DNA of 63,932 nt, counting the filler, from Chrysochromulina tobinii (Eukaryota): assembly GCA_001275005.1 (NCBI GenBank). It is 8 parts of 8 records of this genome, joined end to end, with 100 filler letters (N's around TTAATTAATTAA, not from the genome) between each part and the next. Parts side by side here need not be neighbours in the genome. Positions count along the whole stretch, not along the records: positions 48,544 to 62,123 come from JWZX01000230.1; 7 more parts are not named here. One strand, given 5' to 3'. The notes under the pieces are model-generated. The model had not been told where the DNA came from and did no database searches. It saw nothing but the letters and a program-made list of their open reading frames with translations. The translations under genes and the position numbers were made by a program. This document shows, in pieces, positions 4,441-57,610 of the stretch (its first letter is position 1; every line of letters begins with the position of its first letter).

Positions 4441-6546
4441 ATGCTGTCCGTCATCGCTGGCGCGAAGCGAGCCAAGAAGGATGAGGCGGGGCAGGCACAG
4501 CGAATAACGAGGCATCATGCCATCTTGGAGGCAGCCGCTAAGGAGGTGGAAGCACGCCTGCTGAAGGCGATTCAGGACGGCTTCGCAGCCAGAGATGCTG
4601 AGGGAGCACATCAGGAAATGCGCCATGAGATCGGCATCCTTAAGCGAAGGAGCATGGATTTGTGCACAAGCGCCCTACAAGAGGAAGCCGTGCTCCAGCG
4701 CAAGCAGCTCCACGAGAAGGAGATGTTCTGGAAACTCAAGCTGGAAACCAACAGGGTGGCCGCAACAGCACAGCTCAGAAACGAGACGCGGAAGCTGGAG
4801 GCCAATCACGAAACATCGCTGCGCCAGCGATTACTCGAGCAACGCGAACAGCTCCTGTCTGGTAGTGATGGAGGACTGAGGGATGCGCTCCAGCGGCTGG
4901 ACGAGGCCGACGAGCAAATCCACGAGCTGAAGCGGTCGATTGCCGTGCTCAATCACGACCTGAAGGCGGCGTCGGTCGAGCAGCTCGAGGCTGCCGAGCA
5001 GGCATTTGAGGCGCGGCGGCACAACGAAGAGCTCCAGGTGGAGGCCCAGGAGGAAGCAAGGCGTGTCGCAAAGCTTCGCAACGAGCTCGAGGACAGCGCT
5101 GTTCATGTGGCGAGGTTGACGAAGCAGCTCGAGGATCTCGCGGGAGCCAAGGCAGAGGCGGACGCGCTGCGCACCGACATGTGGGCGCTACAGACGATGG
5201 CCGAGGCGATGCGGGGCAGAGCAGAGGCGGCGGAGAGCGCACGCGACGCCGCATACGCCGAGCGCGACGAATACCGCGCCGAGTACCGCGACGCCAAAGC
5301 TCAGCAAGAGGCGTTTCGGATGGAGCTCGAAGTCGCAATAGCTGACCTCGCGCAAGCCCGCGTGGTGGCCACCGAGGCAGAGGAGCGGATGGCCGATATG
5401 GAGCGGCTGAAGGAGGAAATGGAGCAGAAAGCTACGGATGCCTTTGGACAGAAGCTCGTCGCAGCCGAGGCGGTGGCGGTGGCGGCCAGAGAACAGGCAG
5501 TCAAGGCGGAGCAACATGCGACGACTGTCGAGCAGGCCCTGGCGGCCAGTAAGGCACTGGTACAGGAGTTGCAGGCCCTGAGAGATCAGGCGCGTGCGGA
5601 GGGGGGGGTGAGGGCCGAGGAACTCGCCGCTGTCCGAGCGCAATCGCAACTTTACGAGCGCGAGTGCGACAAGCTGCGAGCGGCGCTGCAAGCCGCGCAG
5701 GCGGAGACTGATCGTCGAGTGTCCCAGCTTCAAGAAGCAAGGAGCATGGAGCAGCCGGACATTGGAGCGGGTGGCGATCGAGATGTTGCGCGCATGGCCC
5801 ACCTCGGGCAGCAGCTCAAAGGCGCTGCCAAGCAGATCTCGGACTTGCAAGACACGTTGCAGCACGTCCAAGCTGCGTCCAAGGCCGATCGTGAGCGGCT
5901 CATTGCCATCTCACTCGAGTCACTCTCCAGCTTGCGAGCACACCTGGTGCGCTCTTTCACCGGAGGGCGTAGGCCCGCGGTGCTCGTCAACGGCGTCGAT
6001 CCGGTACCGATGATGGTGCGAGTTGGGCTGGCGAAGAAGGTAGAAAGTATGGCCATGCACTCGCGAAGGAGGACGCAGTTGATGGTGAACGCCTCCAGCG
6101 TGACGGCGGCCATGGACGCTGTGACGATCAAGGCATCCGTCTCCCTCCCTGACATCCCGAAGGGGGCGCGTGCTACGGGTGATGACAGCGGGCTATCAGT
6201 TAGCGACGCCGCGACCCATGGCCAGCTGCCCAAGGGCAAGAAAACTGAGGTCTACTCGGGGCGCCCCTGCTCGTACCTGGATGTTGATGAGGAAGGCGAA
6301 TTTGGAGACTTTGATGGTGGCCAGTATGTGTGGCCGGACGCTCCAGGTTCGGTTGGCTTACCACCGGGACCGGGACCGGGAACGGGACAGGGACCGGTGC
6401 CGGCTCCGCCCGAGCCATCACGGACGTTGCGAAACCGCGTGCCAGCGGGCAATGCCGCCGCGGAACGAGACGTGCGGAACGCCATCAACAAGGCCAAGGC
6501 CAACGGAGACCCATTGTACACGGTCTTCTACAGCCGCCTCTATTGA
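4441..6546 (+). CDS. Long coiled-coil hypothetical protein
   Basis: ~700-aa ORF rich in E/A/Q/L/R heptads; ATG at 4441. Confidence 0.75.
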   Translation: MLSVIAGAKRAKKDEAGQAQRITRHHAILEAAAKEVEARLLKAIQDGFAARDAEGAHQEMRHEIGILKRRSMDLCTSALQEEAVLQRKQLHEKEMFWKLKLETNRVAATAQLRNETRKLEANHETSLRQRLLEQREQLLSGSDGGLRDALQRLDEADEQIHELKRSIAVLNHDLKAASVEQLEAAEQAFEARRHNEELQVEAQEEARRVAKLRNELEDSAVHVARLTKQLEDLAGAKAEADALRTDMWALQTMAEAMRGRAEAAESARDAAYAERDEYRAEYRDAKAQQEAFRMELEVAIADLAQARVVATEAEERMADMERLKEEMEQKATDAFGQKLVAAEAVAVAAREQAVKAEQHATTVEQALAASKALVQELQALRDQARAEGGVRAEELAAVRAQSQLYERECDKLRAALQAAQAETDRRVSQLQEARSMEQPDIGAGGDRDVARMAHLGQQLKGAAKQISDLQDTLQHVQAASKADRERLIAISLESLSSLRAHLVRSFTGGRRPAVLVNGVDPVPMMVRVGLAKKVESMAMHSRRRTQLMVNASSVTAAMDAVTIKASVSLPDIPKGARATGDDSGLSVSDAATHGQLPKGKKTEVYSGRPCSYLDVDEEGEFGDFDGGQYVWPDAPGSVGLPPGPGPGTGQGPVPAPPEPSRTLRNRVPAGNAAAERDVRNAINKAKANGDPLYTVFYSRLY

Positions 6547-11047: not shown

Positions 11048-11147
11048 NNNNNNNNNNNNNNNNNNNNNNNNNNNNNNNNNNNNNNNNNNNNTTAATTAAT
11101 TAANNNNNNNNNNNNNNNNNNNNNNNNNNNNNNNNNNNNNNNNNNNN
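11048..11147. other. Artificial contig linker (N44-TTAATTAATTAA-N44)
   Basis: The same six-frame-stop linker occurs at 19996-20095, 31624-31723, 34199-34298, 41273-41372, 48444-48543 and 62124-62223. Confidence 0.97.
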
Positions 11148-27242: not shown

Positions 27243-30200
27243 CTACCAGGGAGATTCTGCGAGCTGCCGGGGAGATTCTGCGAGCTCCAGGGCGCCACGT
27301 CCGTGAAGCTCCTGCGCCGGCTCGGCGTCTGCGTCGGAGTGCTTGATGACGGGGACGTCCCGGCGCCCCCTCCTTCCCCCCCGGTGCCGCACAGGGCCGT
27401 CCTCGTCTGACGAATCCGGTTTGGGCAGTGACGAATCTGTCGGTCCCGTGGGCTTTTTCCGCCTTCCCCCGAGCAACCCCCCCAGCCGCCGTCGAGGCTC
27501 CGCTGCGGCCGTATGGTGGTTCGTATGGTGGCTCGCGTAACTGTTCGGTGAGGCAGCGGCACTCGCGGCGGCGCTCCCCATCGGGTTCCCAATCGGGTCG
27601 TTCTCCTTATCGCGCTCCCCACTCGCCCCGCGCCGGCCGGCGCCGCTGCCTTCACGCTTCGATGGCTTGCCTGTCTTCACAGGCGCCGGCGCGAGCTGCG
27701 CAGGCGCATTCGCGTTGGATACGCCGTTGGCGATCTGGACGGGCGCGGCCGAGGGCTTGGGTGCGAGCGTCTTGTTGAGCGGCGCCACCTCCACGCTCGC
27801 CTTCTGAGGGAGGAGCTCGTCGGGGAATTCGTCAATGACGAGGGGTCCATCCCAAGATCTCCCAATCGATCTCCCCATCGGGAGCGACCCCATCGGGCGA
27901 GGCCTCGCCGCCTCCGCCCGTGCGTCTCTCTTGGCTGCCTTCAGCTGCCCGACCGCATCATGCACCGCCGGGGCAAGCGGCGGGGGGCAGCGGCGGGGGG
28001 CGGCGCCGGGGGGCGAGAGAGCGCTCAGCTCCAGATTCGTGGTGACCGACGAGGTGCCATCTCCGCGAATCTCGATCTGGAGCCTCGGAGATGGCAGGAC
28101 CCGAATCTCAACCCGCGGCGTGGTCACGATCTGCATCGTCGGCGCTCGAGCGAGCGAGTCAGCACGCGCCTCGGAGGCCGCCGCCCGCGCCGCCGCCGCT
28201 GCGTCTCGCGCGCGCCGCGCGCTGAGCGAGCCATCTCTATCCCCATCCCCATCCACGGAGGTCGCGGCGGCGGCGGCGGCCGAGGCGGCGGCGGCGGCCG
28301 CGGCGTTGGGGAGGCTCGTGAAGATGGGTGCTGTGAAGGTGGGTGCTGTGAAGGTGGGTGCGGCAGCAGTTTCTGCTTCGACCACTGGCGCCTTCACCGG
28401 CGCCATCGAGGGCGCCGTCGCGGGCGCCGTCGCCGTCGCGGGCGCCGTCGCCGTCGCGGGCGCCGTCGCCGTCGCGGGCGCCGCTGGGGACTGTTTGAGC
28501 GGCGGCGGGGCGGACGGTTTGGCGCGCGGCTCAAAGGTCTTCATGAGGGCCTCGCGCGCCCGCGCCGAGTTGAGCGCCTCGTGCACCACCGCTGGGGAGG
28601 CTGCCCGTGCCGCGGCAGCCACCGCCACGGGCGGCGGCGGGAGCGGCGGCATGTCGACCGGTAACACGGCCTTGTTGCTCGGCGGCTGCGGCGCCAGTGA
28701 GGCCGTAGCAGGCAGCGACGGCGGCGCGAGCTGCAGGCTCTTTTGCAGATGGGCCCTGGCGCGCGCGCTGTCGGTCGGCTCATTGACGACCGCGGGTGAG
28801 CCTGCCTGGGAGACCGCCTGCACGGTGGATGGCGAGTGGTGAGTGACGAGGCAATCAGGACGCAATCAGGACGCGATCAGGACGCGATCAAGAGGCCATC
28901 AAGAGGCCATCAAGAGGCGATCAAGAGGCGATCAAGAGGCCATCAAGACGCAATCAGGATGCAATCAGGAGGCCATCAAGAGGCCATCAAGAGGCCAAGA
29001 ACGGCACTCGCCTGAACGGTCGAAGTCGCTCGCTCCGACCAGACACCGTCCCGTTCGGTCCAGCCCGACGCCTCCGAGCTCTGGACCGATGGCGGCGCGT
29101 ACCTGTGGGGAAAGGGGAGGACGCGCGCGCCGTGGTGAGCACTTGCATGCGCCCCCCCCAAAGCTCGAGCGCTCTGGACCGATGGCGGCGCATACCTCGA
29201 GGTGCGCTTGGTCGCAGCTGCCGCCACGGCCGCCGCGAGGGCCGCCATACCTACCCCTAGGGCGGTGGGACCATCCTTGACAGGCGCGGGAGTCACGCAC
29301 GCAGTGCCCTTCGCGGGCGCCGTGTCGGGCGCGCTGCTCTTCAGCGGGAGGGGTGGCACAGCCGGGTGGCGAGCTTGTGGAGGCGGCGCCCTCGTCGGCA
29401 ACGGCGGCGGCAAGGCGACGATAGGTGGCGGCACCGGAGGTGGTGGCACAGCTGCCACAGACACGGCGCTGGCTGCCACGGCAGCAGGCGCGCCTGCGCC
29501 CGCCGCCCTCGCCTCCGCCGCCCTTGCCTCCGCCGCCCTTGCCTCAGCCGCCCTTGCCTCCGCCGCCCTTGCCCGAACCTCAGCGGCTGCCGCACGCTGC
29601 TCGGCGGCGGCGCGGGCGGTCTCAGAGCCAGCACGTTCACGCCTCGCCACCTCCGCCTCCGCCATCGCCGTGTGCGCCCGCGCCTGCGCCGCCGCTGCGG
29701 CCTCGTGGCCACGCGCCTCGGCCGCCCGCGCCGCCGCCTCTGCCGCCTTCGCCGCCGCCTCTGCTACCATGGCCGCCGCCTCGGCCGCCCGCGCCGCCGC
29801 CTCGGCGAGCTTCGCCTGCTCCTCGAGAACCGAACGCGCTGTGGTGAGCACTTGCATGCAAGGCAGGTCATCAGTGGCAATCAACGTGCCTGCTCCTCGA
29901 GTGCGGAACGCGCTGTGGTGAGCACTTGCATATGCAAGGCAGGTCATCAGTGGCAATCAACGTGCCTGCTCCTCGCGCTCCACAGCACGGCTGACCGCGG
30001 CCTGTGCCTGCTGCTCGGCCGCTTGCGCCGCCTCTGCGCGCTCCGCCGCCGCGCGACTCGCCGCGAGCGCCTCGGCGAGCTCCTGCTTCGTCTTCGTCAG
30101 CTCGGCGGTCGCCGTGAGGTTCGTCAGCTCGGCGGTCGCCGTAAGGTTCGCCACGGCCGCCTTCTCCTTCTTCTCCTTCCGCCGCTGCTGCTGCTCGAGC

Positions 30201-41372: not shown

Positions 41373-42436
41373 TCGACGATGTCGAGCATGGTCTCGAGCG
41401 CAGCCTTCTCGATCGTGCCCTTGACCTTCTTCTCGGACGTCATGTGCTTGAGCACCTTGAGCAGCTTCATCTTCTCGAAGAACTCGTCGCGTGTGATCAT
41501 GCCGTCCTCGCGCACGTCGAGGTACGCGAGCACCGAGCGCACATTGTTCTGGCGGAGGTCGCCCGAGCCACGGTTGATGAGCGCGTTGCAGCACTCTCTC
41601 TGCGCCTCGCGCACCTGCGCGACGGTGCACCCGCGCGAGCCGATCTTCATGCTGTTGTCCTTCTCGGCCTGCGCCTCCTTCTTCTTGTTGGGCACGAGCG
41701 CCGCGAACTGGATGATATCCTGGCACAGCAGCACCTGCGACAGCTCGAGGAAGCCAATCTCGTCGTCATTGTTCAGGTCCGCAAAGTCGCACAGGCACCA
41801 GAGTGTGCGGTCGTTGATGAACCACGGGCAGTGCGCCTCCTCCATGAAGAAGCGCTTGAGCTCCTCCGCCGTGAGCGACCCCTTGTGGTCGTCATCGATC
41901 CTGCGGAACCCGTCGGTCAGGCCGCGCTTCGAGAGCATCTCGACACGCTGCTTCATGTACTCGAACGCGAGCTTGAGTTCATCCATCGAGACTCCGTACT
42001 CCTTCTCGAGCATGACCGAGGCGCGCTCCTTGGCCTCGACCGCCGCGAGGCGCTCGAGGAAGTCCGCCGTCGGCCGCCCCGTCTCCGCAAGCATCTGCAG
42101 ATCCTGCGCCAGCTGGCGCCACTGCACCATCGCCGAGGGCTCGCCGTTTTGCAGCGGCACGCGCGTGAGGTACGGCTCGCAGACCTCGTTGAACTCGGCC
42201 TGAGTCATCGCAAGCTCGACCCACTGGTTGCCGAACGCGTTGCACAGCGCGCGGCGCATCGTCGCGAGGTCGAAGAAGCCCTTCTTCATGCGGTCGAAGC
42301 CGCCCATCAGGTTGCGCACGTCCAGGCGGCGTTTGTTGATGAAGAAGCACATGCGGTCCCAGATGGGCTCGCCCTCGCCCAGGCCCTCCGTGTCGAAGAC
42401 ACCCATGTCGCCGGGAAGCGTCGTGTCGATGCCCAT
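41373..42436 (-). CDS. Multi-EF-hand calcium-binding protein, 3'-truncated
   Basis: Loops FDRMKKGFFD, IDDDHKGSLTAEEL, ADLNNDDEIGFLEL, LDVREDGMITRDEF. Confidence 0.88.
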
Positions 42437-42777
42437 GGCTGCCGGGTGCGCGATGAGAGTGCCTTGACGCTTTTGGGGCTTGAGAGAAAACAAGTTGAGC
42501 CAATTTCATCGAAGTTGTTACACACGGCGCACCGATCTGGATTGCATGCATCCTGCAGTTTCAGGTCCGCTCATGTGAAAGGCAAATCACCTTCACGTAT
42601 TGCGTTCAATGTCATCATTTTGCATTTACAGACGCTGCCCCCAACTCTCTACAGTAATGTGATTGCTCTCGGCGTGGCGGGGACCACGGGAAGAGGGTAA
42701 TCACCAGAGCGACCCTCCAGCGACGAGCCGGCGACGGTCGCGCGGCCGTGGCTCCTAGTCCGAGCCCTCTCCTCCTC

Positions 42778-44257
42778 CTAATCCTCCTCCTCGTCCTCCT
42801 CCTCGTCGTCCGCGCCACGGCCCGAGCCGCGGAGTCGCTTCGAGCGACGCCGCGACGATCGCACGAATTCGTCCGAATCCCTTGGGACCCAGTTGAGGCT
42901 GCCGTCCGCGTCCAGCTTGACCTGGTAAGGCGCCACAAGGCCCGGCGGCATCGTCTCATCGCGGTACATGAGCGTCAGGACCGTACCCGTCGACCAGTCG
43001 CCCGGCCCTGTCTTGCACTCAACGGATGCGCCGATGCCAAAGCGCAACGCCTCACGCTTCTGCTGGAGGACCTCGGGCGTCTGCAGGCAGCCGTTGAAGC
43101 CCGCCGCGAGCTCGTTAGCATCGAGGTCTTTGCCGATGAAGACGAGCTTCGACTCTCGTCGCTCACCCTCGGCCCACGGATCCTCAAAGGTGCCCTGATG
43201 AGGGAGGCAATCATATGAGGGGAGGCAATCAGAGGTACTCAGAGGTACTCAGAGGTACTCAGAGGTACTCGCACACGAGGATCCCCACAGGCCCTCGCCC
43301 GCGTACCTCCATGATCATATGCACCGCGTGGAAGACAAACCGCTGCTCAGCATGCGCGATCGCGAGCACGCCCTTCATTCGGAAAATGTCTTCGCCACGC
43401 TGCTCAAGGAGCTGACCGATCCATGCTTGCACGAGCTCAAGGTCGAGCTCGCCGAGCTGGACCTTGCGCAGGTGGCGCGCGGCGCTTTGGTCGAGGCTCA
43501 CGCTCTTGATGCGCGCGTCGTGCACGGTCGGCGCCTTGCGAGGGTCCAAAAAGTTTGGGTCTGCCTCGAGGGTACGTTTGAGATCGAAGCCGTGCAGCTG
43601 GAGAACGGAGTCTACGGAGACGTTGGAATGTGAACAGCGCAGGATGGGCGCGAAGCCGTTGATGCCTCGCAGGCGCGCCTCGATGCGCTCAAGGTCGCGC
43701 TCCGTGACGAGATCCGTCTTGTTGAGCAGCAGCCGGTCGGCAAACACGACCTGCTGCTTCGCCTCACTGATCGCGCCCTCCGGCTTCTTCTCGTTCAGGC
43801 GCTTCTCAATGTGCTTCGCATCGACGAGCGTGACGACGCCGTCGATGCGCGCAAATTTCCGAATGATGGGATCCACGAGGAAGGTTTGCACGACGGGCGA
43901 CGGGTCCGCCATCCCCGTCGTCTCGATGATGATCCCGTCCAGGACGAGCTTTCCCGAGTCAATCCGACTGGCGAGCTTGTGCAGCACCTTGACCAGATCC
44001 GTGCGCACGGTGCAGCACATGCAGCCGTTGAGTACCTCGAAGATCTCCTCGCCGGTTTGGAATTTGGTGTTTTTCGCCAAGAGCTTGTCGTCGATCGCCA
44101 CCGCGCCAAACTCGTTTTCAATGATGGCAATCTTCTTCCCGTGCGTTGCGGTGAGAATGTGATTGAGGAGCGTGGTTTTGCCGCTTCCGAGGAAGCCGGT
44201 GAGCACCGTCACAGGTACTCGGTCGCACGCCACCTCCTCCTCGTCGCACGATGCCAT
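42778..44257 (-). CDS. CobW/COG0523 metal-binding GTPase with extra C-terminal domain; one intron at 43306-43195
   Basis: GFLGSGKTT, IIENEFG, GCMCC, IETTGMADP, LLNKTD, CobW_C motif FRMKG...FHAVH; in-frame splice to ESKLVFIGKDL. Confidence 0.92.
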
Positions 44258-48443: not shown

Positions 48444-48838
48444 NNNNNNNNNNNNNNNNNNNNNNNNNNNNNNNNNNNNNNNNNNNNTTAATTAATTAAN
48501 NNNNNNNNNNNNNNNNNNNNNNNNNNNNNNNNNNNNNNNNNNNACTCAGTACTTGTGTAGACCGAGGGGAGCGGAGCCGTCCGTCGAGACGGTGGTGGAG
48601 TGAGCGTGGGGGGACCGCGAAGAAACTGAAAACTGAACACGACGCACCTGCCAGCGGTTCACGAAGTGTACGCTCGACTAGTCTATCCAAAATCTCGGCG
48701 CCATGCTGTTCCCCACACGTCTGTGAAATAGAGTCGCCGGGGTCGACCCGCGTAAGAGTCCCTCGGTTTTTTGCTGACCCAACGTGCTCATGTTTCCCGT
48801 GATCGGCTTCGTTCACGGGATTCTTATCTCGCCTCGCG

Positions 48839-51800
48839 ATGCCGACAGTCCTTCTTGCTGCCCTCGCCGCCGCGCTCGCGGACGCGCCGCCGCGCATCTT
48901 CGACCACATTTCGGTCACGGCGAGCGCCTCGTGGGCCAACGATCCCATCATCGAAGCGGCATCACTTCTCTACGGCGAGCTCGGCGGCCGAGGCGTGGCG
49001 TGGTTCCTCAAGGGCGTCGCAGGCCAACCCGGTTGTGAGGACGTGCGCTGCGCCGCCAGGGCGATCAGTTCGCTGAGCTTGCCGCCGCTTCAGGTCCGTG
49101 CGCTCGGCGCCGCTCTGGCCGCGCGGGTGGAGGCGCCCAAGGTGGAGGCCTGGGCGCAGCTCGCGGCCGCCGTGCCGGGCTCCTCACCCGACCGTGGAGC
49201 GCTCGCGCACGCGGCCGTGTGGCTCTGCACGTGCGACGGGCGCATCCACGTGGAGGTGGAGGATGCGCTGGCGGCGCTGGCAGTGCTCGTTGACTCACCC
49301 GAGGAGTGCCGCGAGGCGAGCGCCAGCGCCGTGCCCGCGGCGCTCGACCACGCGTTCGACAACGACAACGCGGGCGGACGCAGGAGCGCGGACGCCATTT
49401 CCACAGCTCCGTTACTGATCGCGTACGTCGACCCGCACGCCGGGGCTGCGATGGGCGCGGCAATGGCGGCGCTACTCGCCGTGCCACCCGCCACCGCGCG
49501 CATCGTGCTGCGCTACCGTCCCTCGGCCGCCGTTAGCCCGGTGCCTCTTCAGGGCTTTGGGACGGTCGTGCGGCTGAAGGCGTCCGAGTACAAGGTGGTG
49601 GACGACCGCGGCGTGGAGGCGGCGGCCGATGCGGCCGACGAGAGCGACGACGATGCCGTCGAGGGCGAACCGGCCGGAGGAGACGAGGCGCCTTCGTTTC
49701 TGCTGCGCAAGCGAGCGGGTGAGCCGCTCGTCGCGTGCATGCTGATTGCCTCCCTCATTGCGAGCGGGTGAGCCGCTCGTAGTTGCGACGGCGGTCACGC
49801 GAGTGCATGCTGATTGCCTCCCTCATTGCACGCAGGTGAGCCGCTCGTTGGCGACGGCGGCGACGGCTCGAGCCTCTCCGCCGCACGGCTTGGCGCTCTG
49901 AGCATGCAGGCGGCGGTGGCGGTGCTGCGCGCGCGCCGGCCGTTACCGACGCTCCGGGACGTGAGCGGGTTGCTCCCAAGCCTCGCACGAGCGCTCTCGC
50001 GCATTAATTTGAGCTCACCTGCCCACGAACCCCTCGTACGCTCGCTCGTGACGAACCCCTCGTGACGAACCCCTCGTGACGAACCCCTCGTGACGAACCC
50101 CTCGTGACGAACCCCTCGTGACGAACCCCTCGTGACACACTCCGAGCAATGCTGCTACCAGCATGCTAACTGCCGCTGATGGCCTGCCTGATTACCTCCC
50201 TCATCAGGTACGCTCGCTCATCGCGATCCGGCCGCTTTTGCAATCAGCATGCAACTCACTGCTGCTCAACGGCTTACCAATCGACCTCACCCGTGCGGAC
50301 TTGGCCCCTCTGATTACCTCTGATTACCTCTGATTACCTCTGATCACCTCTGATTACCTCTGATTACCTCATGCGTGTGGCCTTGGCGCCTCGAGCGCGC
50401 CTCCCATCCCACCACCCGCGATTGCATGCTGAGCGCACCTCCCATCCCTCCCTCATTGCATGCAGGTGCGGACTTGGTGCAGCACACGATGAAGCTCGTG
50501 CTCACCGAGGCGAACACAGCGGCCCAGCTCGTGCAGCTCGGCTTGCGCCCAACTGTCGTGAGCGCGCTGCTCACGACGGCGCCCCCGCCCCCGGTGCGCA
50601 TCGACGCCCGCAGCCTCGAGAGCGCCACGCTCTGGCTGAGTGACCTGAGCGCGCCTAATTTGGATGGGGGCTTCAAAACATGGCCCTCGGATCTAAGCTC
50701 GGCGCTTAAAAAGGGCCTTCGGGGCGCGCGCCAGTTCACAAGGCATAACCTGTTCACAGCCATCTTCGCCTTCGACCCGGCGACGATGCACGGCGCGCGC
50801 ACGGCCGGCTACGTGGCGACCATCCTGAAGCGGAGCGCGCCTCTTCGGATTGGGGTGCTTGCTCGCTCGGCGGACGGTAACGGAGATTCCAATCTGGCCA
50901 CGCGCGCTCTCGCGGGCACTTGCATGCTGATGGCCCCTGATTGCCCCCCTCCCACCCTCCCTAACTAGGTAGCGGAGATTCCAATCTGGCCACGCGCGCT
51001 CTCGTGCACTTGCATGCGGTGGGGGGCAAGGCGGCACTGATCGCTTTCCTGCGCACCCTCGGCGCACGGGCGGGGGCGGCAGTTGGAGCGCCGCGGCGGG
51101 CACCCGAGCTGGCGGCAGCACCGGTGGACGCAGCCGAGGAGGGGGACGCGGCGGGGGCGGACGAAAGTGATGCGCTGGCTGCAGCAAACACGGACGGCGA
51201 CGCGCAGGCGGAGGCGGGGAGCGCTCAGGACGACGCGACGACGGTGGCCGAGGGCGATGCGCGTCGTACTGAGCGTGCCTCCGCTGTTCTTGAGCCGACG
51301 GTCCCACGGCAGGTGCTCGTGATTGCATGCTGATTGCCTCCCTCATTACCAGCTCTTGAGCCGACGGTCCCACGGCAGGTGCTCGTGATTGCATGCTGAT
51401 TGCCTCCTTCATTACCAGCTCTTGAGCCGACGGTCCCACGGCAGGTGCTCGTGGACGCTGTGGCGGCGGCGCTCGAGGTCATCGCGGGGGGCGCCAAGGG
51501 GGGAGGAGGAGGCAAGAAGGGCAAGAAGCGCAAGGCCAAGTCGGCGGCGGCAGAGGAGGAGGCGACGGCGTCGGCAGGCTCGGAGGCGGCGAATGCCACG
51601 GACGGTAGCCGCCCGGCACGGCGCGCGGAGGAGGTCCTCCTGCAGCTCGGCATGATCGGCGAAGGCATAGGGCTCGAGGCCGCCGAGCGTGTGGAAGCCA
51701 TGGACTTGGCCGCCAACCTGCTCGGGCTACCTGCCTCCCTACCCGTCGCCCTTCTCAACGGACTGGTGCTGATCCCCGAGGCGCCCATTACGGCGCTCTC

Positions 51801-54800
51801 AGGCGAGGCGCTCTGGGGGGAGATGATTGCACTTGCAATCACGAGAGAAGCTCAGGTGATTGCATCCCTCATCAGGCGGCGATCGTGCAGTACGATTGGC
51901 CGTCTGATTGCGTCTGATTGCGTCTGATTGCGTCTGATTGCGCTCACGAGAGAAGCTCAGTTTGTCCGTGCGCTCATCGAGGAGGGCGCCCTGATGATTG
52001 CCTGTGATGGCCTCTGAGGACCTCTAATCGCCACTGTCATCAGGTTGTCCGTGCGCTCATCGAGGAAGGTGCCCTGAGCGATGGCGCCAACCTTACCGGC
52101 ACCGAGGCGACGGCGAGATCGGGCGAGATGCATAGTGCGAGATCGGGCGAGCTCCATAGTGCGCTGCTCGAGGTGCTCATGTCAAGGGGGAAGGTGGCGC
52201 CCTTTTATTCTGCACAGCTCGCAGTAGCTGCCAAGGAGGAGACTGTGCGCGATGCCATCCGTGCGGCGGGGGCGGCGGCGGGTGGAGAGGCGGATGGGCA
52301 GGCAGCGCCGTATTGGGCGGATGGGCAGGCAGCGGCGAGCGGCAAGGCGTCTGCGGCAGCAGAGGCGACCCAGTTGGCGGGAGTGGTACGCATGCACGGG
52401 GAGCGATTGGATTGGCGAGCGCTTGCATGCTGATGGCTTCTTAATGGCTTCTGATTGCCCTCCTCCTACCCTCCCTAATTAGGTACGGGTCCTCGAGGAG
52501 CGCGTATGGAATCCCGAGTCGCCTTCGAATGTGCATGCCGACTCGCGCCGACTGCATGCACGCCGGCTGGTGCTCAACCCTAATTTGGAACGCTGTGCTC
52601 GAGAGGGGAGCTGCCTCGAGATTGCGGGGATAGGGGATGGCGCCGCGCTGCACTTGGTTGCGATCGTCGATCCTCTCACGGTGCAAGCGCACAAGATAGC
52701 TGCCCTGCGGATCGCATGCTGATTACCTCCCTCATTACCTCGGCAGGTGCACGCGCACAAGATAGCTGCCCTGCTGATCGCTCTGCGGGAGGAGATGCAT
52801 GCACGCGTGACGCTCCTCCTCGCACCGAAATCTCCGCCGAGCTCCGACGATCTCGCCGAAGGCGCCGTGATGGGCAGCCTTTGGTCCCCCGAGCCATCCG
52901 CTGCCTCGATGCCCCTCGATGCCTTCCACAGGTGATTGCTCTGGATTGCTCTGGATTGCTCTGGATGGCTCTTGATTGCGCATGATTGCGCATGATTGCT
53001 CTTGATGGACCCTTGATGGCTTTTGATGGGATGGGCACGTCTCTCTCTATCTCTCTCTCCGCGTTCCACAGCTTCGCCGTGCAGCTCGATCCGCTCAAGA
53101 CGGCGCCTCCCGCGGCCACCTTTGAGATGTTTCGGCCGAGGGCGCCGCAGACGCTCACGCTCACGCCCGAGGCGCCACCAGGTGATTGCATCTGATTGCG
53201 TCTGATTGCGTCCCTCATCAGACGCTCACGCTCCGCCCGAGGCGCCACCAGGTTGGGTGATGACGATCTCCGCCGCGAGCTCCGACCTCGACAATCTGCG
53301 GCTGCACACGCTACAGTCCAGCCAGTCCGTGCATGCAGCCTACTCGCTCAGCGCCTTGCTTGTCACCGGAAAGTGTGTGGATCGCTCGGGGGGTGGTGTC
53401 GGCGGTGCCAAGGGCGGCGGCGGCGGCGGCGGCGGCGGCGGCAAGAAGGCAGCTCATGGCAAGAAGGGTAAGCAGCAGCGGCGGTGGCGAGGGAGCACTG
53501 ATGACCTCTCTAATTACCTCTGATGGCCTCTCTAATTACCTCTGATGGCCTCTCTAATTACCTCTAATGGCCTCTCTAATTACCTCTGATGGCCTCTCTA
53601 ATTACCTCTGATGGCCTCTGCACGACTCTGAGGGTGGCCAACACTGATTGCCCCTTTCATCAGGCAAGCGGCGGCGCGAGATGACCGAAGCGGATGCGGA
53701 TGGGCACGCCGCCTCCGCCGGAGGGAATGCATGCACAGCGGCGGCCCTCGAGCTGCATCGGGCGCTCGGTACGGCGCTCACTACGGCGCGAGCTCCGACG
53801 GCCGAGATGGGCGCGAGCCGCGATCTCGTCAATCTCGTCAATCTCGTCCACGCGCCCGCTTCGGATACCCTCGTCATCGGCTCCGAGTATGCGCTGCACC
53901 CCGACTGCACCCCGATCGACCTCTGGCATGTCTCGGCGCATGCACGTGCTCACCACGGCGCCCTGCCCCCCCCCTCCCCACAGGTACTTTCAATTGCAGG
54001 CGCCGGGGCCTGGGCTGTGGTCAATCTCGCTCGCCTCCGGCGCCGAGCTCCTGAGCGCCCGCCACGGCGCCGCTACAGGCGCCCGCTACGGCGCCGCCGT
54101 CCCGGGCAGCCGTTACGCCGCGCCTCCGGCCCGCGCCCTCCCCGTGCCGCTCCTCTCGTATACCGGTGCGACGCTCGACATTCTCGTCGGCGCAGACCCA
54201 AATCATGGCTTGAGCACACGCACCACCGCCGCCCCGGCTCTCGCCGCCGCCCCCGCCTCCGCCGCCGCCGGTACGGCGCTCGACGAAACAGTCCACATCT
54301 TCTCCCTCGCATCGGGGCTGCTCTATGAGCGCTTCCTACGCATCATGATGAAGACGGCCGTTGAGCGCGCGAGCCGCCCACTGAAGTTTTGGATCCTTGG
54401 CAACTTCCTCTCGCCCGCCTTCCGTCACGCTGTGAACAGCGGCGCGCTCGCAACGGCCGTTGGCGCTCAGGTGATTGCATCCCTCATCAGGTGGCGATCG
54501 TGCTCTACGATTGGCCGCCTGAGTGCGTCTGAGTGCGCCCGAGTGCGTCTGATTGTGGATGATTGCGTCCCTCATCAGGTGGCGATCGTGCAGTACGATT
54601 GGCCGTCTCACCTGCGAGAGCAGACGGAGAAGCAGCGGCTCATCTGGGGGTACAAGATCCTGTTTCTCGACGTGCTCTTCCCACAGGTGAAAGGCGATGA
54701 TTGCGATGGAGTCCGACGAATCTCCGATGAATCTCCGATGGATCTCCGACGAATCTCCGATGGGCTGTCTCGTCCTCACCTTGCCTTCATCGCAGTCGCT

Positions 54801-56125
54801 CCGCAAGATCATCTTCGTCGAGGAGCTGATTGCCTCTTGATTACCTCTGATGAGCCCTAATTGCCTCCGTCGCAGTCGCTCCGCAAGATCATCTACGTCG
54901 ACGCGGATCAAATCGTCCAGGGCGACCTCGCAGAACTTTGGGATAGGTGATTGCCACGGAAGGACACTAATGGGCACCCTGATTGCCACCCTGATTGCCG
55001 CCCTGATTGCCATCCTGATTGCCATCCTGATCGTCCAACGGGACCTCGCCCCTGATTGCCACCCTGATGACCTCCGATGCTCCCCAATGTGGCACTTCAC
55101 ACCCAACCGAACTTCACACCCAACCGAACTTCACACCCAACCGAACTTCACACCTTTGCGGCAGGCCTCTCCTCGGCGCTCCGGTGGCCATGACGCCCTT
55201 TTGCCGCGCCGACCCAAATATGGCAACCAAGGGCTTCCGCTTTTGGGAGACCGGCTTCTGGGCAGGCGCGCTCGGCGGCAAACCATACCACATCTCCGCG
55301 CTCTTCGTCGCGGATCTGGCCGCCTTCCGATCGATTCGGGCAGCAGGGGGGGCGAGCGCGCCGTCGTGGGCAAGCGAGCAGGGCGTGGGTGACATTTACC
55401 GGTCGACGTATCAGTCGCTCACAGCTGACCCGAGCTCGCTTGCCAACCTCGACCAGGACTTACCCAACTACCTGCAGGGCATGGTGATTGCGTCTGATTG
55501 CGTCTGATTGCGTCCCTCATCAGGACGTACCCAACTACCTGCAGGGCATGGTGATTGCGTCTGACTGCGTCTGATTGCGTCCCTCATCAGGTGCCCATCC
55601 ACTCCTTGCCCGAGGAGTGGCTCTGGTGTGAGTCCTGGTGCGGCAACGCCTCGCAGTCCGCTGCGAAGACGATCGACCTGTGTAACAACCCGATGACCAA
55701 GGAGCCCAAGCTTGAGCAGGCGAGGCACTCTTCATTACCCTTGATTACCCTTGATTGCTCTTAATTAACCCGATGACCAAGGAGCCCAAGCTCGAGCAGG
55801 CGAGGCACTCTTGATTACCCTTGATTACCATTGATTGCTCTTAATTAACCCGATGACCAAGGAGCCCAAGCTTGAGCAGGCGAGGCACTCTTGATTGCTG
55901 TGGATTGCTGTGGATTGCTGTGGATTGCTCTTGATTGTACTTGATTGCGCTTGATTGCTCGGGCAGGCGAGGCGCATCGGAGGGGAGCGCTGGGCCAAGA
56001 TCGACGCCGAGCTCGAAGCCGCCCTCGGGGGGGGAGCCTCCGCCGCGGTAGGTTCTGAAGGTGGCGCTCACGGCGGCGCGAATATGTCACCATCGGCAGC
56101 ACTCATGGAGAAGACGGAGCTCTGA
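48839..56125 (+). CDS. UGGT: UDP-glucose:glycoprotein glucosyltransferase, 18 exons, ~1625 aa
   Basis: Signal peptide; [103 protein letters not shown]-terminal KTEL. Introns 49719-49835, 50036-50207, 50293-50465, 50877-50968, 51313-51444, 51856-52043, 52386-52482, 52681-52746, 52932-53071, 53182-53251, 53468-53663, 53887-53983, 54471-54578, 54687-54875, 54947-55164, 55484-55590 and 55720-55966 (GC-AG) give one continuous frame. Confidence 0.95.
55484..55590 (+). mobile_element. Two copies of the 40-nt intron module GTGATTGCGT(CTGATTGCGT)2CCCTCATCAG around a duplicated exon end
   Basis: Copies at 55484-55523 and 55551-55590, near-identical copy at 53182-53221, and a 20-nt form at 51856-51875 and 54471-54490. 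Mobility is inferred. Confidence 0.55.
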
Positions 56126-56332
56126 CGCACCGCTGGAAACGTGAAAGTGACCACTTACGTTTTACGAGTTCGGAACTTACCCCGTGGGTTATAATCCTCG
56201 GGCCGATCATCTTCTCATAATGACGACAAATGCGTCGTTCCCCAGCCGATGCAGGCTACATTGTTTTGAGCACGGATGTGCGAGCTTGGCTTTTTTGTGA
56301 GAAAAAAAAAGGGTTCACACGAACGAGTCTCC

Positions 56333-57610
56333 ATGGCTTCCCAGAGCCCACAAGACCCATGCATGGACGAAGATACCATGGCAAGGCAGTTCCCGCGCCT
56401 GCAAGGCGCCGGCATGAGCGGCCCACTAGGAGCAGGCGGCTACGCTAGCGGCGAACACATCGGCTCATCGAATGCCCGGGCGCGTGCCGCCGCGAGCATG
56501 AACACGGTCTGCACAGCCACGGAAGTGGAAGCAGTTCTCGACATCGACGCAGTTGAAGTGGAAGCAGTTGATGACATGGACGACTCCATCGAGGTTGAAG
56601 TTGTACTCGTTGACGAGTCCCGGATGGACACAGGCTCCTCGTCGACGCCACGAGTTTCGACAGATGACGTGCAGCACCTCAGGGCGATCAAGGCAAGGGC
56701 TGCCGCGGCAGCGGAGGGGCTGGAGCTGGTGCCGTCGTCGAAGAACCAGACGGGCTTCAAGGGCGTGACCTTGACTCGTGGCAGGTACTATGTGGACGTC
56801 TGTGAGAACGGCATGACGCGCCACCTCGGGGGCTTTGCAACGCGAGAGGAGGCAGCCTTGTGCTATGCAAGGCACATTGGGGCGGAGCGAGCGGCGGCAG
56901 AGGCGGCGAAAGAGAGAGGCGAGGGGCTGAATACGACAAAGCCGCTCACAGCAGATGAGGCCAGGGCTGCCGCGGCAGCGGAGGGGCTGGAGCTGGTGCC
57001 GTCGTCGAAGAACCAGACGGGCTTCAAGGGCGTGACCTTGACTCAGGGCAGGTACAACGTGGACGTCTATGAGAACGGCAAGCAATCACGCAACTTTGGC
57101 GGCTTTGCAACGCCAGAGGAGGCAGCCTTGTGCTATGCAAGGCACCTTGGGGCGGAGCGAGCGGCGGCAGAGGCGGCGAAAGAGAGAGGCGAGGGGCTGA
57201 ATACGACAAAGCCGCTCACAGCAGATGAGGCCAGGGCCGCCGCGGCAGCGGAGGGGCTGGAGCTGGTGCCGTCGTCGAAGAACCAGACGGGCTTCAAGGG
57301 CGTGAACTTGATTGGTGGCAAGTATTACCTGCAAGTCTATAAGAACGGCAAGCAATCACGCAACTTTGGGGGCTTCGCAACGCCAGAGGAGGCAGCCTTG
57401 TGCTATGCAAGGCACCTTGCGACGGAGCGAGCGGCGGCAGAGGCGACGGGTGAGGGGCCACAGCCGCTCACGGTGGATGAGGCGAAAGAGATTGATGGGA
57501 GGCACACCTCAGGACGCGGCTCTCTACAACCCGTTGAACATCCCGCGCCGCCTGGTCCGAGTTGTGAACGTGAACATCCCGCGCCGCCTGGTCCGAGCAG
57601 TTCCGAATAG
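56333..57610 (+). CDS. Protein with three tandem AP2/ERF-like DNA-binding domains
   Basis: TGFKGV...GRY.V....G....LGGFAT.EEAALCYAR three times, ~270-bp near-identical repeats. Confidence 0.8.
   Translation: MASQSPQDPCMDEDTMARQFPRLQGAGMSGPLGAGGYASGEHIGSSNARARAAASMNTVCTATEVEAVLDIDAVEVEAVDDMDDSIEVEVVLVDESRMDTGSSSTPRVSTDDVQHLRAIKARAAAAAEGLELVPSSKNQTGFKGVTLTRGRYYVDVCENGMTRHLGGFATREEAALCYARHIGAERAAAEAAKERGEGLNTTKPLTADEARAAAAAEGLELVPSSKNQTGFKGVTLTQGRYNVDVYENGKQSRNFGGFATPEEAALCYARHLGAERAAAEAAKERGEGLNTTKPLTADEARAAAAAEGLELVPSSKNQTGFKGVNLIGGKYYLQVYKNGKQSRNFGGFATPEEAALCYARHLATERAAAEATGEGPQPLTVDEAKEIDGRHTSGRGSLQPVEHPAPPGPSCEREHPAPPGPSSSE

Follow-up and report, generated by a model that had tools for sequence, protein, structure and literature searches.

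What are the 10-nt repeats that recur within a gene of the haptophyte alga Chrysochromulina tobinii, and in what unit do they spread? We analyzed a stretch of 63,932 nt (the window), for which an earlier note had described modules of periodic, branch-point-like motifs and had proposed that telomerase-like or slippage synthesis amplifies a spliceable element of 20–40 nt. The repeats are the tail ends of genuine spliced introns, and the actual unit is larger than the module, comprising a duplicate of the adjacent exon and a 3′-splice-site module.

The host gene encodes UDP-glucose:glycoprotein glucosyltransferase (UGGT; 48839..56125, + strand; 18 exons, 1625 aa). Its frame is open once 17 introns are taken out, both ends align to UGGT homologues, and the product has PF18404 homologues, with Prymnesium parvum as the top named match (63%). 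RNA contigs from four runs contain the joints of 11 introns of 66–247 nt, ten GT-AG and one GC-AG, the splice ends of spliceosomal introns, and DNA contigs are continuous through 51916–53211 and 53939–55123. A joint from 51938 to 53182 and two joints that go back along the sequence have short sides or lie inside an array, and were assigned to contigs of other loci. As anticipated, the repeats are intronic: between 51454 and 56126, 57 of 59 core motifs fall in introns (1723 intron nt vs 2950 exon nt). The predicted sense-strand bias was likewise found, since in 15/15 loci with a Pfam match downstream of a module that match is on the module's strand (86 loci, with 450 of their 459 six-frame segments scanned).

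All five GT...AG modules are present where they had been placed, at 51856 and 54471 (n = 0) and at 53182, 55484 and 55551 (n = 2), where the last has a single CTGACTGCGT unit. The arrays described at 50310, 52934, 53500 and 55893 were likewise confirmed. The arrangement between a GT and an AG holds for this gene and is not a feature of the family, because only 13 of 131 module ends have the GT-started form. None of the five modules is spliced alone in RNA contigs, where the lengths removed at their sites are 188, 70, 108 and 107 nt; a minimal selfish intron of 20–40 nt is thus unsupported, while the idea that the sequence maintains the spliceability of insertions gains support. If only the 20-nt n = 0 modules were spliced out, the protein would end prematurely, at aa 790 or 1377. 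Module-only splicing at 53182 and 55484/55551 (n = 2) would keep the frame, so that a minor isoform of this kind may occur there and is compatible with the contigs.

The basic intron anatomy is a target duplicate plus a copied module; the duplicate supplies the GT (class I) or both splice sites (class II), and the module the pyrimidine tract, the AG and candidate branch motifs. Nine of 11 introns have YTRAY or CTCAC at 8–45 nt upstream of their AG, an uncontrolled count with respect to chance. All introns of this gene are on the + strand. The 66-nt intron at 52681..52746 (RNA joint in 3/4 runs) is made up entirely of 35 nt copied from the beginning of the following exon, the source of its GT, and a module, the source of its AG; its donor region is an empty site, at which the related-strain locus L052 carries a 2 × 57-nt insertion whose end is not AG. 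The donor region of the 97-nt intron at 52386..52482 (3/4 runs) is a second empty site, filled in L052 by a 79-nt duplicate-plus-module insertion. At 53182..53251 (70 nt; 4/4 runs), a 40-nt n = 2 module precedes a 30-nt copy (53222–53251) of the upstream exon end, which gives the used AG. The 107-nt intron at 55484..55590 (3/4 runs and X15) comprises two modules separated by 27 nt copied from the end of the upstream exon (a 67-nt tandem duplication), with the GT taken from the first module and the AG from the second. At 54471..54578 (108 nt; 3/4 runs), an n = 0 module is followed by 27 nt that repeat the beginning of the following exon, then by an array and a terminal module whose AG is used. 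The 188-nt composite intron at 51856..52043 (3/4 runs) is ordered as an n = 0 module, a copy of the UGGT exon from 54579 on, whose source is 2.7 kb away, a 10-nt array, exon copies (17 nt of the upstream exon end, then 33 nt of the downstream exon start) and a second module.

The remaining introns vary more. The 189-nt intron at 54687..54875 (joint in 1/4 runs) contains, internally, 26 nt copied from the beginning of the following exon. In the 247-nt GC-AG intron at 55720..55966 (2/4 runs), the end of the upstream exon recurs as several 33-nt copies alongside the GATTGCTGTG array. The 218-nt intron at 54947..55164 (2/4 runs) has 14-nt and 18-nt arrays and a weak exon copy (score 11, inside the control range), and the 140-nt intron at 52932..53071 (4/4 runs), with its GATTGCTCTG array, has no long exon duplicate. 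A second module family (TGCTCACCAC type), which lacks the 10-nt array, is represented by the 97-nt intron at 53887..53983 (1/4 runs). The putative 196-nt intron at 53468..53663, which contains the 22-nt array at 53500–53620, was placed by frame restoration and picked among several frame-restoring options for its GTAAG donor. Five putative 5′ introns (49719–49835, 50036–50207, 50293–50465, 50877–50968 and 51313–51444), were selected by their duplicates, with the open 1625-aa frame as the check; the beginning of the following exon is copied at the 5′ end of each, and the CTGATTACCT array at 50310 lies inside them. Overall, a 17–35-nt exon copy is present in 7 of the 12 introns of 51454–56126. 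Of 132 control pairings, 131 have scores of at most 12, the lone exception being the cargo itself. Elsewhere in the window, another gene carries a tandem duplicate-plus-module insertion (29813..29975, − strand), of which 89 nt (29813–29901) are 98.9% identical to the L076 insertion in unrelated flanks.

The same anatomy recurs across loci. A duplicate follows the module AG at 95 of 177 ends of family A, compared with 46 of 1085 control CAG|GT sites (62/125 module ends in a first-pass count), and at 21 of 39 ends of the array-less family. Clean direct repeats enclose the array in 181 of 506 cases against a background of 6.1%, an enrichment that array-internal repeats passing the filter may inflate, and 86 of 180 direct-repeat structures are unclassified, visibly with array-internal noise. 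Duplicates have length quartiles of 17, 22 and 30 nt (range 15–50 at a scan cut-off of 15) and a mean identity of 0.98, and are perfect in 109 of 180; exact GT..AG removal is possible in 76 cases on the array strand vs 21 on the opposite strand. The inserts measure 20–179 nt, frequently with a constant 3′ end. For the duplicate-enrichment, direct-repeat, cargo, microhomology, spacing, orientation and strand counts, 21 of 122 loci were left out as redundant; two of these, L044 and L053, are non-redundant, and both are included in the counts of 178 arrays and 73 units (see below) and of 13/131 module ends.

The copied part comes from other introns, whether close by or belonging to a different gene, and donor exon sequence may be carried along; the inserts contain exon pieces of other genes, so introns are copied from introns. 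Conserved UGGT codons (VAIVQYDWP) are present in the intron at 51856 and in L103, and the intron at 54471..54578 is the likely donor of both cargoes. Similarly, 68 nt of intron and exon (VSLELEK) from L095, a gene which we take to be pyruvate-carboxylase-like, match with 100% identity inside an intron of the unrelated L013; the L095-type donor gene has a Pfam biotin-lipoyl match. Furthermore, 49 nt are common to L048 and L120, L046 contains a 93-nt local copy and an L054 intron an antisense local insertion. The UGGT cargo pattern had no hit in genome_contigs. Copies run past the donor's AG into the exon and many, including an L052 insertion, stop inside the array, which, together with the antisense L054 copy, excludes excised introns as the sole template.

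We cautiously favor the explanation that the introns are products of microhomology-primed template switching in the course of DNA repair or replication, and that slippage alters the size of their arrays. A free 3′ end would copy the tail of an existing intron and rejoin its own gene upstream, duplicating a short target stretch; a few bases of homology to abundant units or AG|GT junctions would begin and finish the copy. Selection would retain only spliceable sense copies in exons, each survivor would become a new template, and complete new introns could be made in this way. Microhomology of at least 4 nt is found at the entry junction of 13/78 events, where shuffles give 0.9 (maximum 6), and at the exit junction of 8/51, where they give 0.63 (maximum 4), while 39 of 78 entries and 20 of 51 exits have none by the measure used; junction homology is 9 nt in L013/L095 and 14 nt in L076/window. 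Several observations weigh against template switching, among them the events that lack microhomology, the possible inflation of the direct-repeat enrichment and the failure to find a whole-intron presence/absence allele (see below). In addition, neighboring arrays share their orientation by 123 to 1, more than expected of random DNA donors and equally fitting for an RNA template, and variable long duplications with 5′-variable inserts are also a signature of target-primed reverse transcription.

The main rival, which we regard as unlikely yet deserving serious weight, is that enzymes of the LINE or Penelope type, an endonuclease with a reverse transcriptase, copy intron tails of unspliced pre-mRNA into nicked DNA. 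The variable 15–50-nt duplications, the 5′ truncation and insert lengths, the frequent constant 3′ end and the sense bias of modules and arrays would all suit such retroposition. In Chlamydomonas, PLE insertions are described as short, 5′-truncated and intronic, and non-LTR duplications as variable (10.1101/2022.05.23.493040). Against it, the 3′ ends are not fixed, with stops inside the array and read-through into the donor exon, no poly(A) or element-specific tail was seen in the inserts, the L054 local copy is antisense, and the reverse transcriptase family is absent from the 15 Pfam-positive flanks (a weak test).

It is improbable that the introns are classical non-autonomous Introners, MITE-like or mobilized by a Replitron/HUH element, with the module as their body. 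They resemble Introners in forming repeated intron families with a duplicated target, and in having splice sites split between target and insert or both drawn from an AGGT-type duplicate; in Polarella and Symbiodinium, ILE Introner classes recruit a splice site from the target-site duplication (bioRxiv 10.1101/2020.10.14.339549; for Introners see also Gozashti et al. 10.1101/2022.06.06.494994, PMC12130899). However, the Introner classes in these sources have a class-fixed duplicate of 3–8 nt and copies alike throughout, and the Chrysochromulina Introner has a 4-nt duplicate and itself carries the 5′ site, whereas here duplicates vary from 12 to 50 nt, the insert mostly carries the 3′ site, the ends are unfixed, and inserts are chimeric with donor-exon cargo from several donors. 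Nor do the inserts have a fixed length, a conserved 5′ terminus, a terminal inverted repeat, a stable fold or near-identical end-to-end copies. Replitron-1 of Chlamydomonas shares variable target duplications, oriented insertion after RG and carried donor flank, but its elements span 0.9–3.6 kb, encode a Rep transposase, end in terminal repeats fixed at 6 bp and are not described there as introns; a Replitron protein is reported there from a Chrysochromulina genome (PMC10288648). As for Introners in the broad sense of mobile sequences that make introns, cross-gene copies and two empty sites were observed, but these sites lie within existing introns.

Other known routes of intron gain share single features with these introns. 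Known filler-DNA gain also turns filler between direct repeats into a spliceable intron, but that filler is unrelated or mitochondrial, whereas here it is mostly another intron's tail and many loci show such an event. Introns are also known to be gained through tandem genomic duplication and through intron transposition, with Oikopleura cited in the source (PMC3296678). As in tandem genomic duplication, an AG|GT-containing duplicate supplies the two splice sites of class II events, although that process involves no foreign insert; as in intron transposition, intron sequence relocates within the same gene. Reverse splicing, in contrast, would place a complete intron exactly, leaving no duplicate and bringing no exon cargo along. 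Read and colleagues, writing in Nature in 2013, reportedly found 10–11-bp repeats in Emiliania huxleyi that are intron-enriched, biased in strand and position, and suggested to act in intron processing, though without an insertion anatomy or an origin. For haptophytes, the accessible literature did not yield the duplicate-plus-module anatomy, and the consulted portions of the Chrysochromulina tobin genome paper (PMC4580454) and the Phaeocystales paper (PMC12480563) do not describe it; supplementary datasets on Introners may list such families.

Comparison between strains bears on whether nothing enters new positions and old introns merely swell, through slippage and tandem duplication in place, with arrays occasionally converting one another. 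Duplicate-plus-module insertions segregate between strains and slippage shifts unit number, as had been proposed: arrays differ by 10, 30 and 59 nt (the last in the intron at 52932..53071, longer in L052), and the putative intron at 51313–51444 has two 66-nt units in the window vs one in L052. At both sites that are empty in the window and filled in L052, the insertion lies at the donor of an intron that already exists. Comparisons of the window with L052 and L088, of 14 locus pairs and of four further alignments yielded no allele in which presence or absence concerns a whole intron. Swelling is nevertheless distinctly improbable as the full account, given that the introns at 52681–52746 and 53182–53251 are entirely near-perfect exon copy and module and that coding cargo is found in unrelated genes.

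The arrays are strongly periodic. Successive TGAT(T/G)R motifs are spaced mainly by 10 nt (991), then by 11 (212) and 12 nt (97) in 102 sequences totaling 724 kb, and the window contains six occurrences of the 19-nt module end, for which a first-order Markov model predicts about 1e-6. Wide sharing is limited to approximately the last 19 nt of the module, and near-identical long pairs are few. A hairpin or TIR idea, prompted by a module end that is reverse-complementary to a unit-like 10-mer, was rejected, as folds were no better than shuffles (z-scores −1.86 to +0.99 in eight sequences); no terminal inverted repeats were seen in the listed inserts. The module pattern had no match in viral_contigs. 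The strong 10-nt period, the common TGAT core and the microhomology of some targets to the unit would suit reiterative synthesis from a small RNA template, but this is very improbable and largely refuted as the unit of spread: the 178 perfect arrays are built from 73 distinct units, which makes one telomerase-like template unlikely, no named module is spliced alone (5/5 cases), inserts contain donor-gene cargo, the array-less family behaves alike with an equal duplication rate, and Rfam gave no match across positions 48600–56400 at E up to 1.

The origin of new spliceosomal introns is an old question, and the prevailing answer is mostly transposons (Introners). About 72% of Introner families could not be assigned a mechanism in one study (PMC12130899). 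We tentatively suggest, as an idea that may well prove wrong, that introns reproduce here without a transposon: intron tails would be preferred templates for patching breaks, the 10-nt units would offer microhomology landing sites and redundant branch motifs, the return at AG|GT would regenerate splice sites, and each repair would leave a new template intron. The copying is directly testable, because the sequence itself identifies donor and recipient, events still segregate between strains, and a mixed culture with RNA data exists. Exon duplicates within introns will mislead gene prediction in such genomes. If true, break repair templated on existing introns would account for continued intron gain without a transposon, and intron-to-intron copying would also supply an origin for the 10–11-nt intronic repeats reportedly present in Emiliania.

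The five GT...AG motif stretches, or modules, singled out in the earlier note (51856 and 54471 with n=0; 53182, 55484 and 55551 with n=2) were found at their reported positions, as were four related arrays (50310-50370, 52934, 53500-53620 and 55893). The 19-nt module end occurs six times in the window versus about 1e-6 expected. All five modules lie within a UDP-glucose:glycoprotein glucosyltransferase (UGGT) gene on the plus strand (48839..56125). One of its exons has 1919 homologues bearing PF18404, the best named being from Prymnesium parvum (63%), and removal of 17 introns leaves an open frame of 1625 aa, both ends of which align to UGGTs; we accordingly treat the host as a haptophyte. At 11048-11147 and at six further positions the window (GC ~62%) has N runs, each enclosing a 12-nt AT-only spacer, that join separate contigs, and features should not be read across them. 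Elsewhere in it, a coding stretch at the start of an EF-hand-like ORF (42363-42440, minus strand) recurs where that contig ends (48340-48443, plus strand), possibly as a duplication or an assembly artefact. A minus-strand gene at 43180-43300, which we take to be CobW-like from its translated motifs, has an intron with a module on its own strand, and a repeat of about 240-250 nt, present in three tandem copies at 56680-57450 (plus strand), presumably encodes AP2-type domains.

A metagenome scan returned at least 123 module-bearing stretches, of which a set of 122 loci (721 kb) was analysed; a pattern scan of viral contigs gave 0 matches. The earlier note would have been refuted by a lack of intron enrichment or of sense-strand bias. 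Core motifs are intronic in 57 of 59 cases in the 3' two-thirds of UGGT, and a Pfam domain downstream of the module lies on its strand in 15/15 loci with such a match (from 86 loci, with 450 of their 459 segments searched; two matches below the Pfam curated cut-off), so neither objection applies. The downstream matches often begin within a few residues of the module AG. Of 131 module ends, 13 have the GT-started form. Just two core motifs are exonic; one is a unit-like 8-bp inverted repeat at 51824-51843, directly before the 51856 donor. About 16 nt of antisense module-like sequence, in frame within a UGGT exon (50230-50260), reflect either chance or an exonised antisense insertion. The array period is mainly 10 nt; Read et al. 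(2013) reportedly described 10-11-bp intronic repeats in Emiliania. Other intronic arrays have periods of 14 nt (50050-50135 and 54980-55030), 11 nt (54720-54765) and 18 nt (55100-55150), with units outside the CTGAT family, and slippage therefore appears to act on any intronic seed.

RNA contigs from four runs, which lose rare isoforms, contain 11 joints between 51700 and 56100; the introns they define are 66-247 nt long, with GT-AG or GC-AG ends. Modules 51856, 53182, 54471 and 55484 each supply a GT that serves as donor, while their own AG is skipped and splicing uses that of a module further on (54578, 55590) or one at a duplicated exon end (53251); the proposal that the 20-40-nt module is itself the intron was thus not borne out. 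If modules were spliced out alone, the frame would be preserved at 53182 and 55484/55551 and lost at the two 20-nt modules. A candidate branch-type motif precedes the AG by 8-45 nt in 9 of the 11 introns.

Seven of the 12 introns of 51454-56126 carry a 17-35-nt near-exact copy of an adjacent exon end; control pairings scored ≤12 in 131 of 132 cases. The five 5' UGGT introns, which were picked by their duplicates with the open frame as sole check, all begin with sequence copied from the next exon. In the window and 101 loci together, the module end is followed by sequence with a duplicate upstream in 95/177 ends of the 10-nt-array family and 21/39 of a second family lacking the array, versus 46/1085 control sites. 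In an unanchored scan, 181 of 506 clean direct repeats enclosed an array (background 6.1%). The 180 non-redundant array-enclosing repeats, whose copies are 98% identical, comprise 51 of class I (duplicate starting at GT/GC, insert ending in AG), 43 of class II (duplicate containing both splice sites) and a further 86 left unclassified, the latter being nested insertions mixed with noise. Introns 52681-52746 and 53182-53251 probably each arose in one event, since they consist of duplicate and module and nothing else. At four loci (L027, L093, L122 and L006) whole duplicate-plus-module units stand head to tail 2-6 times, as expected from unequal exchange between two duplicates; at another locus (L054, 3780-7160), about a dozen introns of one gene carry modules, with both families represented and tandem units among them.

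Judged from sequence, the inserts are templated by other introns. The 54471 intron duplicates conserved UGGT codons from the exon at 54579; these recur together with their module 2.7 kb upstream, in the 51856 intron, and again in a different gene (L103). In L013, an intron contains 68 nt copied perfectly from the L095 intron; the copy begins at a word of 9 nt common to both and crosses the AG into 21 nt of exon, coding in L095. L103, L013 and their donors sit in different assemblies. L076 and window 29813-29901 have 89 nt in common, set in unrelated flanks and sharing a 14-nt duplicate; L048 and L120 have 49 nt in common, and L046 contains a 93-nt local copy. Most of the 22 shared-insert rows beyond those named represent array-to-array similarity. 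L054 carries a local antisense insertion within an intron, with its exon donor at about 4890-4925, where the module is now absent. Microhomology of at least 4 nt was found at entry in 13 of 78 periodic events (0.9 in shuffles) and at exit in 8 of 51 (0.63 in shuffles); about half of the events have none. Folding of the introns revealed no stable structure; the strongest hairpin among them (z -1.86) falls at 54487-54520, the exon piece copied to 51856 and L103, and hairpins may favour template switching.

Strain differences reveal that the duplicate-plus-module insertion process is active. The strain locus L052, 94% identical to the window overall, has two insertions that the window lacks: one of 79 nt (38-nt duplicate plus 41-nt module ending in AG) and one of 114 nt (two units of 29-nt duplicate plus 28-nt module, not ending in AG). 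Conversely, the two 66-nt units at 51313-51444 are one in L052. Compared with the window, array lengths differ by 10 and 59 nt in L052 and, in a second strain locus, L088, by 30 nt, and whole-unit differences also occur between other strain pairs. Alignment of the window with L052 and L088, and of further locus pairs, found no allele from which an entire intron is missing. L041 (16759-19298) and L067 (8510-11061), only 84% alike, have an insertion in common, so some events predate that divergence.

We lean towards a mechanism in which a free DNA end would pair over a few bases with the tail of an intron, copy it and rejoin its own gene upstream, thereby duplicating the target. In exons, selection would retain products that are sense and spliceable; slippage would afterwards resize and homogenise each array. 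Excised lariats cannot be the sole template, given the donor-exon read-through, the array-internal ends and the antisense copy, and these features also speak against a fixed element. Target-primed reverse transcription of pre-mRNA (for non-LTR signatures, 10.1101/2022.05.23.493040) would yield the same product and is consistent with the 123:1 orientation bias of the arrays; we consider it the distinctly less probable route. Telomerase-like templating of the 10-nt units, suggested in the earlier note, is unlikely given 73 unit types among 178 arrays, the same duplicates in the array-less family and no Rfam match across 48600-56400. The original observation is confirmed and its interpretation partly supported.

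The papers searched gave no description of this anatomy in haptophytes. Introners recruiting a splice site from their duplicate work alike (10.1101/2020.10.14.339549; 10.1101/2022.06.06.494994; PMC12130899), whereas the inserts here have no fixed short duplicate, end-to-end identity or inverted repeats. Replitron-1 (PMC10288648) likewise makes duplicates of variable length and carries donor flank, but its elements measure kilobases and have fixed ends. The process combines three mechanisms outlined in PMC3296678: break repair with filler, tandem duplication and intron transposition. It is intron gain by duplication-flanked insertion, here in a new form with introns as templates.
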